A DNA stretch of 64,000 nt. It comes from Octopus vulgaris (Eukaryota). Below, piece by piece: positions 7,263-62,637 of the stretch. The translations under genes were made by a program, and so were the position numbers. The stretch is from assembly GCA_951406725.2 (NCBI GenBank), contig OX597817.1, positions 114,948,001 through 115,012,000 on the forward strand, read 5' to 3'. Position 1 is the stretch's first letter; every line of letters starts with the position of its first letter. Under the pieces are notes generated by a model. It made no database searches. It was given only the letters and a program-made list of their open reading frames with translations, and was not told where the DNA came from.

Positions 7263-7325
7263 AATATATATATATATATATATATATATATATATATATA
7301 TGAATAACAAAGTGGTGCAGATATC

Positions 7326-7413
7326 AATCCATTACGGCCGTTTCCAACGTCTCCTTTAATTGACTAATGAGAACATTACATCATTGTAAAGAAACGCTTT
7401 CGTCAGATGAATT
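7326..7413 (-). ncRNA. minimal type I hammerhead ribozyme motif
   Basis: Minus strand: helix I aauucau/auggauu, CUGACGA, long helix II (agcguuucuuu...aaaggagacguu), GAAA, palindromic helix III CGGCCG, GUA cleavage triplet. Confidence 0.85.
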
Positions 7414-7838
7414 CATGATCTTCAAACATAAAGGATAGTTCGACTTATTGAACGTATTTAATAAATTCATGGAGTAAGAATATTAACAGTGATCCTGCTA
7501 CAATTTTGTTGGCAGAATGAACTTATCAGAATAGAATATATTTGGTCAGAACAAAAAAGAATTTAGGGGGTTATTAGAGTTTTTAGTAGGAGGAGGAAAT
7601 AATTGACACAAGTGACCAAGTTATCTGAACTTCCAACAATAGAGGAAGGATCGGCTCCAATCGTCTAGATTTCTAAGGAAGATGCTTATGCCCACTGGTC
7701 AGTGGTGAGAGAAGCAACTAATGTCAGATCAGCCGACTAAGTTATTAAGTGATGGTACTATATGTCGGTTTAATTTTCGCAAATGGGTAAGTAGTAGGGT
7801 AGTAATAAGGGAGTGAGTGATAGGGAGGGAATGAGAAT

Positions 7839-7960
7839 GTTATATCGCAATACTACACAGTGGCTGTGTGAGCTACGAAATCCCCATCGCCACTGTTATA
7901 TCGCAATACTACACAGTGGCTGTGTGTGCATCTCATCCTCGTCGCTACTGTTATATCGCA
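7839..7960. repeat. short tandem duplication (gttatatcgcaatactacacagtggctgtgtg x2 plus partial third)
   Basis: Directly visible, ~56-bp period. Confidence 0.8.
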
Positions 7961-9874
7961 CGTTCGGATGCCTCTACTACTCAACTCAACTCTGCTCTTG
8001 ACGTCTAGGCTTCTCTCTCTATATCTACGTATTGGGCTAGCCTACTTCATTCTCTGGGAGCGTCCATACAACAAAGAAGAAAGAAGCTGAATTTATATTC
8101 ATTACTGTATTAAAGGTTTTGAAAAATAATGGAATAAAATTTCAAAATAAAATAGAAAAAAAGGACTGAGGACTATTGTAATTTAGCATAGTTATAATGT
8201 TATAGCATTAAGATAAATTTAGAAATTAGATATATAGGTTAGAAATAAATTATATTTAGAATTATTAGAAGAAAGCGAAGAAACAAATTATTTAAAAAAA
8301 TATATAAAGAAGAGTATTAGATATAGAAATTTAGAATTTAGGCCCACAAGCTAATAAGGAATATAATGCATTTAAAATATAAGGATATAAAGATAAAATA
8401 TACGATGAAGTATGTAAAATATAAACAGTAAAAAGTATATAGTCTTTAAAGAAATATAAAAAGGATATATAAAAAATATGCAAAAGAATATATAAAAATA
8501 TACAGAAAATAAAATATATAACAATATAAAAAGTATAGAAATAAAATATAAAAGAATGCAAAAATATAAGAAAAATATAGAAAATATTTAAAATTCTAAA
8601 AAATATTAAAAAATATAAAGAAATATATAAAAATTATAATGGTATATATATATAAAGAAAAAGAATTATAACAAATACGTTATTTTAAATAAAGAGATAT
8701 ACCAAAATTTAATACAAATAAATCTAAAAGTGAAAAACGGTTTAACAAATGTTTGTAAGATATATTTTAAAGATGTATAAAGCTAAAATCATAATGGACC
8801 TTAGAGGATATATTTTATACTTAGGGGAAGTGTGAAATCCAAAGAAAAAACCCCTGCGAGTAGTAAAGATAAAAACATATCTTATATCAACCATATATGA
8901 AAGGAGTTGATTTAGGAAATGTCTAGATACATATTGTAATAATAGGGTGTAAATTTTCTGGGTTACATTTTAAATTATAAATAATTATTTCCTAGGAGTA
9001 AAGTTATAGAATAATCATTTCAACCTAAAGGTTATATATGGTCAAATTGCGGGAGAGTGACATAAGTATGATTTACTAAAGGAATACTAAATCTAGTTGG
9101 TTACATAAGTATTATTAATGATAACCAGCAATGTGAATGCGAATATGTTAAAAAGAATATTTTAAAATATGGTATTTAAAGAGTGTCAAAATTTATGATG
9201 GGTTATAATGATAAACTATAAAGGAGAGATAAAATTAGGAAAGAAAACAAAAATCAAATTAAGAATTAATAATAAATTAATGAAGTAGTGCTAATTCTAG
9301 TGGGAGGGAGGTTATATTAATTGCTGTATAGAGTTTCAAGGTTTAATCCATGGAGTTATAAACTCAGTATACTATGTAAAGGTAATATAAAAACTATATG
9401 GGGAATAACTATTAAGACATAGGAGTTATAGTGTGTAAGGTATAAACGAATTGGGTGGAGAACAAGTTATCCAGACATCATGGTTAGTTATATAAAGAAA
9501 GAAGATAGCTATACATAAAGGATCAACGGTGTTAAGGGTCAATAGAACACATTACTAAACAGGTTATAATATTACAGAGAGTAAGCTATGAATGATAGCG
9601 CACGGTGAGTAACTTGGGTCATCAAAGAGACAGTAGGAAGTATTATTATTTACTGCTTCTAAAGTATTTAAAGGTACGGGTAATACAATGAAAACATGAT
9701 ACCCTAAGACCTAATAACCCCTAAATTCTTCTGTGTTCTAACTAAATATACACTATTCTGATAACTTCATTCTGCCAACTGGATCGTAGCAGGGTCAATG
9801 TAAATATCTTTACTCCGTAATTTTTGTTAACTATGTTGAATAAGTCGAACTGTCCTTTATGTTTGAAGATCATG

Positions 9875-9963
9875 AATTCATCTGACGCAAACTGTTTCTT
9901 TACAATGATGTAATGTTCTCATTAATCAATTAAAGGAGTCGTTGGAAACGGCCGTAATGGATT
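9875..9963 (+). ncRNA. hammerhead ribozyme motif, core mutated (CUGACGC)
   Basis: Inverted partner of 7326-7413: aattcat CTGACGC ... GAAA CGGCCG TA atggatt. Confidence 0.7.
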
Positions 9964-59510: not shown

Positions 59511-60397
59511 TACATACATACATACATACATACATACATACATACATACATACATACATACATACATACATACATACATATATATATATATATATATATA
59601 TATATATATATATATATATATATATATATATTCAGTATTGGTTTAATATTAAACCAATTCTGAATTAAAGAACTTTTGCAAGCAAGGTATTTTCCTTTGC
59701 AGCAGTTTATAAAATAATTGTAGGAACATTTTGCATGATTGAAAAATTATAAAAGCAAAGAGGCAAAAACGTATGCAAAAATATAATTAAAATCTTAATA
59801 TTTATTCATTTTGGGTATGAATATATGTATATTCTATTATTTTCAAAAGTTTAAATTAAATACAAAACTTGATTTCAATGAATATGAATATCTAATATTC
59901 ATATATGGGTATTATAGATATATAGATGTGCTACAGCTTTTTGACTGAGGGTTATTTGTGGATATGTCATATGTTAATAGGAGGATATATATGTCTGTGG
60001 GTGGGTGTCGTGTATAGATGTATGTGTATATAAATATGTATATATATATATATATATATATATATATATATATATATACACACACATATATATGTTTGTG
60101 TGTGTATGTGTGTAATTCATTTTTATCGGGATGGGGTGGCGACTCGAAGTAGATAAAGCTATAAATTTTAAGCAGATAAAATTGCAGAAACTAGGTTTGA
60201 GTAACAAACCAGTACGAAGCCGAATAATGTCTTGTACCATTTTCAGATAATAAGAAATTGACTCTGCATAATAAATTGAAAGTTTTCTTTTGCTCTCGTT
60301 TGTAAAGCCTAACGTTCTTATTTAACTATCCCTTTATCTTTCTCTCGATTTATCTATAAACATATCTGTTATATGTAAATGTGTTTGTATATATATA

Positions 60398-60789
60398 CTT
60401 TTATTCGTGTACTTGGTTCAGTCATATGAATGTGGTCATGATGGAGCACCACAGTAAAGGGTTTTAGCCGAAGAAATCTAACTCAGAGCTTATTCTTTGT
60501 AAGCCTAGTACTTATTCTATCGGTCTCTTTAGCCGGACCACTAGCTTACGGCGACGTAAACACACCAACATCGGTTGTCAAGTGATGGTGGGACGACAAA
60601 CACAAATACAAAGACACACACACATATACATACGACGGGATTCTTTCAGTTTCCGTATACCAAATGCATTCACAAGGCCCTGGTAGGTCCGAGGCCTAGT
60701 AGAAGACACTTGCACAAGGTGCCACGCAATGGGACTGAACCCGGAACCATCTGGTTGGGAAGCAAGTTTATTACCACACAACCACGCCT
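60398..60789 (-). mobile_element. SINE family A copy
   Basis: Reverse complement of the 18029-18448 family. Confidence 0.83.
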
Positions 60790-61296
60790 CTCTCTCTCTC
60801 TCTTTCTCTCTCTCTCTCTCTCTCTATATATATATATATATATATATATATTAAATTAGAGATAAAACCACTGTTAGGCAAATCAAACAGTGAAAAACAT
60901 AAGCCAATACATAAAATTAATTTAAAAAATAAAAAATTATTTAAATAATTTAAACTTATAAATATTATATATATTTACAAATATATATATATATATATAT
61001 GTATGTATGTATATTTTTATATTTATATATTATTTTATTTATTAATTAATTAATTTATTTATTTATTTAATTTTTTTTAAATATCAAAAGTATTAAAATT
61101 TTAATAAAAGATAAAGATATGCATATATATATATATATATATATATATATATATATATATATATATATACATATAACACAATATCTCTGCTCGGTGCGTT
61201 CGGTGAAAACGAAAATACGATGAGCGCGCAATACACGTAGCAGGCGGAATCTGACGAGGCTTACAAAGGCGAAATTTTTGCACGCGTGCAAGAAGG

Positions 61297-61979
61297 AACA
61301 TATAATTGCCAACCACGTGTGGCGTCCTGTACGGGACAGGAAGTCATCTCTTCCAGCTGGCTAACGACACATTCTGTGTCCGATTAGTATTTGCGAGAGG
61401 AGGTCATCGCTCCCATCCCTAGCATTACATGGCACACATGGTCTCCAGTTTCTGGGTGGTTACCCGTCCTCAGCGTGTGTCAATCACCAGCTAGGGATGA
61501 TACCTACTCCACCTGCAAAATACTATATGCTTTTTCCTGCAACAAATCGTCGTTGATCTCGAAAAAGGAGAAATAAACTATATCAAATCTCTGAGCGAGA
61601 TGTAAATAGTACCAACTCAGAATCGTAACATATAATTGCCAGCCAAGTATGGCGTCCTATACGGGACGGTGCTATTTTGCGAGTGGGACGAGTTTTCATC
61701 ACTAGCTGGTGATTAACACACGCTGAGAAGGGGTAACCATCCTGAAACTCGAGTCCGAGTATATCACGTAAGGCTAGGGATGGAAGCGATCACCACCCCT
61801 CGCAAATACTAATCGGGCACAGAATGTGTGTCGTTAGTCAGCTGGAAGAGCTGTCTTCCTGGGGCTATAAATGTCAGTAGCACTGTCCAGTATAGGACGC
61901 CACGCTTGTTTGGTAATTATATGTTATGGCAATTATATGTATTGCTACTGTTTACATCTCGCTCAGAGATTTAATATAG
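61297..61979. mobile_element. older hammerhead-bearing multimer, ~330-bp unit plus partial unit plus inverted unit
   Basis: aacatataattgcc at 61297 and 61627; inversion from ~61673; degenerate hammerheads at 61434-61480 (-) and 61716-61762 (+). Confidence 0.75.
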
Positions 61980-62415
61980 CGTATAATATATATATATATA
62001 TATATATATGTATATATATGTATATATATGTATATATATTTAAAAAAGGGGATGTGGAACACGAGTTGTGATATATAAAAAAGGAAATGAAGAAAATGCT
62101 GACAAAATAATTTAAGTAATTTAAGTAATTTAATTAGGTGAAAGTTCTTTTTACCGGTTGCGCATTTGTTATGCTTATCAAAAAATATTTTTTTAAGAGA
62201 GATAGAGTTCCTTTCTGATAGATTTTTTCCTCTTATATATATATATATATATATATATATATATATATATATATATATATATATATATATATATATATAT
62301 AATTTCAGCAAAACAATTTAGATTCAAAAGAATATGGTACTTAACTTAGATGCACCAGAATTTTTTTATGGTATTAACCATAAATGATGTGGGGTGATTA
62401 TAACGAAAAAATAAC

Positions 62416-62637
62416 CAACAAGAATGGATCGGTAGTTTAGTACAATTGTTTCTGGTACTCAAATTCTCAACAAGAATAGAAAAAGTAAATATAGAGTTTT
62501 CCCCTAAGGATATCCCCTTACATAGTAAGGATGAATACATCTGGCTACTGATCCATAGAATGCTGTAATATTTGCAGCTTTAATAAAATGTTTATAGTAT
62601 GAAACAATTGTACTAAACTACCGATCCATTCTTGTTG
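62416..62637. repeat. 37-bp perfect inverted repeat carrying a GAAA-CAAUUG-UA half hammerhead
   Basis: 62416-62452 / 62601-62637; region lies between (TA)n tracts. Confidence 0.8.

Follow-up and report, generated by a model that had tools for sequence, protein, structure and literature searches.

Eight inserts with inverted arms, assigned to families A to H, lay between positions 7,302 and 62,650 of the stretch of Octopus vulgaris DNA analysed here (64,000 nucleotides of contig OX597817.1; hereafter the window), and both arms were confirmed at all eight places (Table 1). The inserts are real members of multi-copy, non-coding repeat families bearing predicted type I hammerheads. An initial annotation of this DNA had proposed opposite-strand ribozyme arms at eight places in eight unrelated insertions, and both points stood: in a strict scan, the GAAA-palindrome-UH half of the hammerhead was on the minus strand in the left arm and on the plus strand in the right arm of six of the eight inserts (C, A, B, D, F and H), with one mismatch in the right-arm palindrome of E and a mutated left-arm half in G, and no significant sequence similarity was found between the eight inserts (best E 0.01 over 18 nt). 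Half-motifs directly after an exact CTGANGA numbered eight in the window, compared to a mean of 0.3 and a maximum of 1 in 20 local shuffles. C and A were two independent insertions, situated tail-to-tail at a single (TA)n run.

Table 1. Arms, hammerheads and flanking (TA)n runs of the eight inserts (positions within the window).
Feature	Position	Strand	Details
Family C left arm	7302..9710	-	~2.4 kb, short end point; hammerhead 7333-7406
(TA)n at short end of family C left arm	7264-7301		
Family C right arm	9711..10245	+	long end point; 254-nt tail 9992-10245
Family C right-arm hammerhead	near 9882-9956		core mutated
(TA)n between C long end and A long end	10246..10266	no strand	common to both
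Family A left arm	10264..11140	-	1.8 tandem units of 491-nt retrozyme unit; long end (unit position 491)
Family A left-arm hammerheads	10501-10591 and 10991-11081		
Family A right arm	11140..11654	+	short end (unit position 385); hammerhead 11433-11523
(TA)n right of family A insert	11653-11721		
Family B left arm	37950..38910	-	1.7 units of 563-nt retrozyme unit; short end
Family B left-arm hammerheads	38144-38194 and 38706-38756		
Family B right arm	38911..39498	+	long end (93-nt tail); hammerhead 39160-39210
Family D left arm	43376..43512	-	long end, including 66-nt tail (43376-43441)
Family D right arm	43524..43594	+	short end, hammerhead 3' half
Family E left arm	46412..47059	-	short end; hammerhead 46486-46564; 46610-47059 placed in this arm by inference
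Family E right arm	47060..47478	+	long end, including 219-nt tail (47262-47478)
(TA)n between E long end and F long end	47479..47514	no strand	common to both
Family F left arm	47515..47630	-	including 36-nt tail (47515-47550)
Family F right arm	47632..47711	+	short end; 80-bp hairpin with left arm
Family G left arm	61297..61674	-	short end; ~357-nt tandem unit; hammerhead mutated
Family G right arm	61673..61981	+	long end (55-nt tail); hammerhead with one core change
Family H left arm	62302..62600	-	long end, including 97-nt tail (62302-62398); inner limit approximate
Family H right arm	62601..62650	+	short end, hammerhead 3' half

Hammerheads, tandem units and coding capacity

A type I hammerhead was taken to comprise a CUGANGA (or U3-A8) core, helix II, GAAA, helix III, UH and a helix I closing round the cut. 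Minimum-energy folding (z-scores -2.8 to +0.3) did not recover the full three-way junction, and motifs were therefore checked helix by helix. Complete hammerheads (core plus helices I-III), with a helix I of 5-8 bp and a paired helix II, were present in the window in arms of C, A, B and E; in D, F, G and H the window copies were truncated or mutated, but each of these families has intact motifs in copies elsewhere, so that complete type I motifs occur in some copy of every one of the eight families. No hammerhead was among the best 150 of 392 matches in an Rfam scan of the window, where those listed were solely microsatellite-driven matches to miRNA families. Families A (491 nt, up to 11 units), B (563 nt) and G (~357 nt) were built of tandem units, each with a type I hammerhead, and no tandem units were found in sampled loci of C, D, E, F and H. 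Words of family A were also present in sequencing runs presumed, by guess only, to be RNA, with no read spanning a ligation site among them.

No single ORF combining a reverse transcriptase (RT) of the Penelope-like element (PLE) type with a GIY-YIG endonuclease was found, and by sequence the eight inserts are non-autonomous or too decayed. A Pfam search of 15 of the 91 window ORFs found no element coding remnant, only a mariner fragment. Family F, non-coding and ≥1.5 kb long, had a minimal hammerhead of the U3-A8 kind and gave no coding remnant in a six-frame reading, and no PLE coding remnant was detected in the family C left arm, the interior of which was collinear in loci L077, L088 and L093. 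Elsewhere in the genome, an intact PLE encoded a 781-aa ORF (Pfam GIY-YIG, E 4e-7; RVT_1, E 1e-6) and had a hammerhead with the U3-A8 core variant. As read from its translation, the C-terminal GIY-YIG was preceded by a CX2-5CxxC linker, and a CCHH motif was present, a combination that would make it a Neptune/Nematis-type PLE (definitions from PMC8557442); the protein had no PDB sequence match. With this protein as query, tblastn gave no match in the window or in family C, D and G loci, and the single matches near E, F and H loci were neighbours outside the elements. No sequence link joined the eight families to this PLE, its 3' repeat or relatives in the fetched loci, a terminal-repeat comparison that covered one intact PLE family and those relatives.

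Orientation, targets and two fixed end points

After removal of duplicate loci, all 118 two-armed copies sampled were divergent (head-to-head), with one extra convergent neighbour downstream at locus L216. Two-armed inserts made up 34 of 40 loci in family A and 20 of 39 in family B, all divergent, and 400 kb of unselected DNA contained 8 divergent events (7 insertions) and no convergent ones; divergent-to-convergent ratios in other locus sets were 8:0, 15:2 and 70:4. A strict hammerhead scan of the 400 kb gave only 7 motifs (shuffles 0-3), all of them outside the 200 kb that adjoin the window, and the orientation count consequently rests on the looser half-motif within inverted repeats. A naive count of pairs <3 kb apart would score unrelated neighbours at one TA run (C/A, E/F) as convergent. 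Single-armed inserts were common (6/40 in A, 19/39 in B and 16/19 copies of the 781-aa PLE family).

With ends placed as in the initial annotation, 10 of 16 were ≤15 nt from a (TA)5+ run, compared to a background of 3.4%. Five of the other six were displaced by family-specific tails of 36-254 nt, which had been omitted; counted from the tips of these tails, (TA)n adjoins 15 of the 16 true ends, in agreement with the claim that it abuts most outer junctions, and the left end of G (61297) had 127 unexplained nt before a TA run. Both ends were at TA in 33/40 family A and 26/39 family B loci. The genome-wide checks of polarity and TA that had been proposed gave the outcome expected. Target duplications of 13-17 nt were found at five loci (L063, L171, L189, L169 and L200). 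At L063 a two-armed insert with a 14-nt duplication was situated in AT-rich DNA that is not TA, so the self-complementarity of (TA)n named in the initial annotation is not strictly required.

What had been overlooked is an asymmetry between the outer ends. In each of the eight families the 3' ends fell at two fixed points, termed short and long here, with 36-254 nt between them. Among the 118 two-armed inserts, 98 paired a long with a short end, 3 had two ends of the same kind and 17 had an unclassifiable end; the queries for D, F and H contained the tail, which makes the main arm long by selection in those families. Either arm may be the longer one, the long-end arm being longer in 21/30 A and 11/19 B inserts. 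The 781-aa PLE family, with a tail of 38 nt, comprised 14 short-only, 2 long-only and 3 two-armed copies (all three long+short), and 19 of 19 ended at (TA)n.

The ribozyme cut was rejected as the boundary of the arms, as the short end lay 35-194 nt past the predicted cut and the long end further still, and inner ends were ≤6 nt from it in only 3/52 (A) and 0/24 (B) cases. In tandem families the unit ran on beyond both end points. The outer ends are therefore probably internal start sites for copying, and not RNA 3' ends as had been supposed. Compared by eye, the end points had no common motif beyond a pyrimidine-rich run followed by AT-rich bases.

Relation between the arms and a proposed mechanism

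Variants common to both arms of one insert amounted to 0.59 in A and 0.56 in B, compared to 0.06 and 0.085 when permuted; the observed fractions were never reached in 1000 permutations and include variants private to the insert in question. The fractions were 0.81 (F), 0.67 (H), 0.26 (D) and 0.18 (G) against 0.05-0.17, with one locus giving most of the shared variants in F (21/30) and H (13/17). Sharing was similar off-register (A 0.55, B 0.45), as expected of a repeatedly copied unit; this independence of register in A and B fits a circular template. In a cruder arm-identity test with over-extended alignments, an insert's own arm was the closest in 0/9, 2/10 and 2/11 inserts. The shared variants fit one RNA molecule, two transcripts of one source locus, or later gene conversion alike. 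Microhomology at the central junction was weak (mean 1.7 vs 0.73 nt in family A, 15 clean junctions of 26).

Taken together, the fixed, different end points and the shared variants indicate that both broken strands likely prime on one RNA source. The best explanation, to which we give a probability of about 0.7, is that a PLE protein likely nicks both (TA)n strands and that both 3' ends prime on that source. Staggered nicks would leave two 3' overhangs, one of them priming at the short site of the RNA and its counterpart at the long site. Synthesis from either primer would then extend a variable distance, in A, B and G over several rounds of circular or concatemeric RNA, and a central join between the two cDNA 3' ends would follow, with microhomology of 0-6 nt or with a few bases inserted. 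As the two arms are copies of a single RNA segment, either the RT that follows would need to displace the cDNA made ahead of it, or two sister RNAs would share one asymmetric complex. The ribozyme probably yields unit-length or circular RNA and would not set the insertion ends. Priming from two ends with a central join was already part of the initial annotation, as twin priming at (TA)n, and that part is retained; the L1 type of twin priming is not, as the arms cover an overlapping template segment in all eight inserts with no internal deletion, and no poly(A) end was found at any of the eight.

The same PLE machinery might instead use a separate RNA for each DNA end, for example two RNAs paired via the palindromic helix III. 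Two templates would explain same-segment arms without strand displacement, sister transcripts of one active locus would have common variants, such dual priming has been proposed for L1 (PMC2837659), and, according to PMC4209133, hammerheads of this kind are thought to work as dimers. Equivalent RNAs should, however, pick their start sites independently, yet two ends of the same kind occurred in 3 of 101 classifiable inserts, and an extra asymmetry has to be assumed; we regard separate templates as unlikely.

Self-priming, in which a cDNA or antisense template folds back and is copied into the inverted arm, and endonuclease resolution leaves the one-sided tail, has been put forward for Penelope of Adineta (PMC3846280) and to account for the tail (PMC8557442). 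Both the shared variants and a perfect hairpin like that of F (47551-47711) would follow from such self-priming. It needs nested arms, however, whereas in family C each arm holds sequence absent from the other (2.1 kb only in the short-end arm, the 254-nt tail only in the long-end arm), and arm lengths are unequal in both directions, as in the pairs of 107/2883 nt and 5532/41 nt; moreover, most central junctions were not palindromic. On these alignments, folding back of one arm cannot have produced its partner, whichever arm came first, and fold-back is disfavoured as a general rule, with a low probability overall.

Tc1/mariner-type elements typically have terminal inverted repeats and insert at TA. 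Together with the mariner remnant in the window, these traits might suggest an origin at the DNA level, either as foldback or MITE-like DNA transposons or through post-insertion inversion by recombination at (TA)n; this is very improbable, as the outer ends are unequal and fixed and the inner ends random, tandem multimers and conserved hammerheads are present, and the RT-coding PLE obeys the same end rule. Least credible is an assembly or long-read fold-back artefact: the window's central junction at 11140 was unbridged by the short-read contigs listed and the arms of A and B are 99-100% identical, but those of older elements are only 81-90% identical, ends are fixed per family, and other family A antisense-to-sense joints were found in short-read contigs from 3 of 4 independent runs (15 among the matches listed and 9 more).

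Comparison with PLEs, retrozymes and L1

Head-to-head inversion, the one-sided 'tail', (TA)n targeting and opposite-strand hammerhead pairs are already in print (Arkhipova 2013; Cervera 2014; Craig 2021), and the polarity rule is published PLE architecture, not new. The initial annotation had envisaged a (TA)n-targeted, ribozyme-linked retrotransposition system; the system is not a new one, and we see non-autonomous PLE-type elements and retrozymes with this known architecture. Like described PLEs, the inserts have partial tandems, an inverted 5'-truncated copy at the 5' end, a one-sided tail, a hammerhead in the terminal repeat, target duplications when visible and a (TA)n preference (as in Naiad and Hydra, including octopus entries). 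Unlike described PLEs, no ORF was detected in any of the eight families, tails are 55-254 nt in seven families compared to 30-40 bp, and long+short pairing, counted here, is near-obligate; PLE papers ascribe the inversion to self-priming or endonuclease resolution. As in PLE minimal hammerheads, helix III is palindromic, and family F and the 781-aa PLE have the U3-A8 core variant; dual minimal hammerheads of PLEs are known ~100-700 bp apart on opposite strands, and the part of that account available neither counts the orientation of such pairs nor explains them (PMC4209133).

Families A, B and G consist of tandem, non-coding units 357-563 nt long that each carry a type I hammerhead, and in this they resemble metazoan non-LTR retrozymes, which have been proposed to be non-autonomous PLE derivatives copied from circular RNA; the accessible portions of these accounts describe for retrozymes neither inverted insertions with two arms nor a fixed pair of ends nor (TA)n as target (PMC7229834, bioRxiv 10.64898/2026.07.22.740005). 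The remaining five families, C, D, E, F and H, are closer in appearance to non-autonomous derivatives of PLEs than to retrozymes.

In vitro, the protein of Poseidon, a PLE from Anolis carolinensis, nicked AT-rich DNA on both strands and extended each of them; two internal RT start sites on the RNA delimited the tail, a dimer was predicted and insertion did not need hammerhead cleavage (PMC11167929). No difference in start site between the two strands was observed in that system, whereas genomic inserts here pair long with short, and the main text, as far as available, draws no link to inverted genomic inserts. Twin or dual priming of L1, as described in PMC2837659, is similar in that both target strands prime, outer junctions are cDNA starts, the central join has little microhomology and target duplications are formed; its second site is arbitrary and an internal deletion is left, whereas here both sites are fixed and the arms copy the same segment. 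In the literature searched, no paper extended twin priming to PLEs or tallied how long and short ends pair, though subscription papers or supplements may hold such a model.

How tandem and inverted PLE inserts form, and why microsatellites are preferred, is a named open problem (PMC8557442). The long+short rule in eight families and an intact PLE, the shared variants and the non-nested arms make this question reducible to one experiment in an existing in vitro system, and the same three observations count against the published self-priming model as one that holds generally. More tentatively, PLE retrotransposition may be natively two-primer, with a protein dimer on one RNA placing its RT sites at two fixed start points, one per strand of a staggered (TA)n cut. 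If so, a single step would yield the tail and the head-to-head inversion as well as the rolling copies made from retrozyme circles, and strand displacement would replace second-strand synthesis. The insertion signature of PLEs, as borne by tandem hammerhead units, provides genomic evidence that PLE proteins copy animal retrozymes.

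Divergent arms and their (TA)n flanks

The window was placed on contig C4, and the genome searched comprised 2.8 Gb in 227 contigs. Self-BLAST and a repeat finder recovered inverted arms at all eight places for which the initial annotation had proposed a single polarity rule (families A-H, one window copy each), in a window dense in microsatellites. A strict scan placed the GAAA-palindrome-UH half of the hammerhead on the minus strand of the left arm and the plus strand of the right arm in six of the eight, and elements E and G had the same arrangement with one copy mutated in each; the rule thus held. 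Exact CTGANGA preceded the half eight times in the window, versus 0.3 in local shuffles. On a helix-by-helix check, window arms of C, A, B and E possessed complete type I hammerheads; those of D, F, G and H were truncated or mutated in the window, with intact motifs in other family copies, and family F had a U3-A8 core. Since an Rfam search of the window gave no hammerhead among the matches listed and energy folding was uninformative, self-cleavage is predicted only. Sequence comparison found no relatedness among the eight families.

Inserts and other repeats in the window. End pairs are counts of two-armed genomic inserts (long+short/same/unclassifiable).
Feature	Position	End spacing (nt)	End pairs	Description
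Family A	10264-11654	106	30/0/4	
Family B	37950-39498	93	19/0/1	
Family C	7299-10245	254	4/0/5	
Family D	43376-43594	66	15/1/1	
Family E	46412-47478	219	3/1/3	
Family F	47515-47711	36	10/0/0	
Family G	61297-61981	55	7/0/3	
Family H	62302-62650	97	10/1/0	
Probable ninth element	47964-48228			Hairpin, degenerate (68%), whose start lies 8 nt from a TA run; plus-strand GAAA-CAGCTG-TA at 48070
Possible remnant of another, inward-pointing hammerhead element	61170-61296			127 nt between a TA run and element G; plus-strand CTGACGA-stem-GAAA and 14-nt palindrome; unmatched among the other fetched loci
Lone hammerhead-like cores	48521-48553, 23464-23507			Minus strand; no inverted partner
Decayed mariner (Mos1-like)	27202-28301			34-nt terminal inverted repeats; HTH_48 Pfam match (E 2.9e-5); broken frames contain transposase motifs
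Old inverted-repeat element	25871-27123			1.25 kb, arms 77-89%; no hammerhead half, TA flank or match among fetched loci
SINE-like repeat (~420 nt, at least six copies)	18028-18441, 29335-29787, 35031-35434, 51764-52168, 60398-60788 and others			Several copies adjoin TA runs
Second repeat family	near 19078-19320, 22446-22757, 35894-36123, 50969-51281			

For every element the genome contained hundreds to thousands of candidates, and each search scored 40 of them. Family A (491-nt unit) was two-armed at 34 of 40 loci and family B (563-nt unit) at 20 of 39, every one head-to-head, and two-armed inserts of C (28 loci) and of D, E, F, G and H (24 loci each) were likewise divergent; one family D locus had an additional inverted neighbour downstream. 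The count of divergent against convergent pairs that had been proposed as a check agreed: for half-motifs lying in inverted repeats, a 400-kb sample picked by coordinate alone yielded eight divergent events (seven insertions) and no convergent ones, and the ratios in three further locus sets were 8:0, 15:2 and 70:4. The strict hammerhead motif was rare in the same 400 kb (seven versus 0-3 in shuffles), with (TA)n within 150 nt downstream in four of the seven versus a 10.6% background. The proposed contact with (TA)n was also borne out, at 10 of 16 ends as originally drawn versus a 3.4% background; five of the remaining six were displaced by family sequence omitted from the initial annotation, so that 15 of the 16 true ends abut (TA)n.

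Two fixed ends and their pairing

Each of the eight families had two fixed 3' end points, a long and a short end separated by a tail, an anatomy directly visible in the inserts. After removal of duplicate loci L236, L240 and L310, 98 two-armed inserts combined one long and one short end, three had equal end types and 17 had an unclassifiable end, the D, F and H queries favouring long main arms and the A, C and E queries being tail-neutral. This pairing is a feature that the initial annotation overlooked. Its reading of the outer junctions as RNA 3' ends was not supported. Downstream of the predicted cut, 35-194 nt separated it from the short end; this offset, together with inner ends near the cut in only 3/52 (A) and 0/24 (B) cases, ruled out ribozyme cuts as the ends. 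At L051 and L192, second arms of ~9-35 nt still displayed the complementary end type, and some 'single-armed' inserts may hide such micro-arms.

Source of the arms and proposed mechanism

The fraction of non-majority bases common to both arms was 0.59 in family A and 0.56 in B, versus 0.06 and 0.085 when permuted (maxima in 1000 permutations 0.28 and 0.19), and part of the arm-shared variants were absent from every other sampled copy. Sharing in F (0.81), H (0.67), D (0.26) and G (0.18) compared with 0.05-0.17, single loci dominating F and H; a cruder arm-identity test was negative. Out-of-register sharing (0.55 in A, 0.45 in B) was about equal to in-register sharing and arms were up to 11 units long, both of which fit repeated copying of a circle or homogeneous concatemer. 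The longer arm was the long-end arm in 21/30 (A) and 11/19 (B) inserts. Target duplications of 13-17 nt, as expected from staggered nicks, were readable at five loci, one of them outside (TA)n, and central microhomology was slight (mean 1.7 versus 0.73 nt; 15 clean junctions of 26, family A).

Most likely, a Penelope-like element (PLE) protein would cut both (TA)n strands with a stagger; one DNA 3' end would prime at the short site of one RNA source and the other at its long site, both reverse transcriptases would travel variable distances, and the cDNA ends would be joined centrally. We infer the nicking, priming and displacement steps, and the single-molecule template. That two sister RNAs within one asymmetric complex supplied the arms is distinctly less probable. 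Self-priming by fold-back, put forward in excerpts of PMC3846280, where head-to-head was the commonest form, is improbable: the arms of window element C each contain sequence missing from the other, and arms are not, as a rule, copies of each other. An origin at the DNA level is very unlikely. Least credible is an artefact, for although the short-read contigs listed showed no bridge over the window family A junction, three out of four independent runs yielded such contigs with antisense-to-sense joints from other family A copies, so the insert class is not an assembly artefact.

Relation to Penelope-like elements

Searching the genome for GIY-YIG turned up a 781-residue frame in many copies; it has an RT domain, a GIY-YIG domain at the C-terminus, and a linker and CCHH motifs as in Neptune/Nematis PLEs. 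This PLE family of Neptune/Nematis type (L145-L163, e.g. L148:944-6160) is young; the frame was open in 16 of 19 loci, and three loci had a 479-residue open frame upstream. Every one of the 19 fetched copies ended at (TA)n. The end was a short site in 14 and a long site, 38 nt beyond the short one, in two; three copies were two-armed with one of each. The 3' repeat had a U3-A8-type hammerhead core. No sequence common to this PLE and families A-H was found, so it shows that the machinery is present, not which family mobilises which rider. The family F mobile unit included a (TG)n/(CA)n-like stretch of low complexity, ~1 kb long, upstream of the match (L255, L259, L270, L272, L274), and such elements may therefore spread microsatellite-like DNA.

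Available excerpts of PMC8557442 described an inverted 5'-truncated copy and one-ended tail for PLEs; they named (TA)n as the target of Naiad and Hydra PLEs, octopus families included, and called the origin of such structures unresolved. Similarly partial texts reported hammerhead pairs on opposite strands with a spacing of 100-700 bp, as well as the U3-A8 core (PMC4209133), nicking and extension of both strands with two internal start sites (PMC11167929), retrozymes as PLE derivatives (PMC7229834; bioRxiv 10.64898/2026.07.22.740005), L1 twin priming and dual priming (PMC2837659), and Penelope families with recent activity in the genome of an octopus, hammerheads being unmentioned in the part available (PMC13282606). 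The eight inserts belong to this already known kind of element, and of the initial interpretation, two-end priming at (TA)n with a central join probably stands, whereas the claim of a new system does not. The searchable literature, with subscription papers outside it, held neither long/short pairing counts nor twin priming applied to PLEs. The quantified end-pairing rule makes an unsettled question of mechanism testable.
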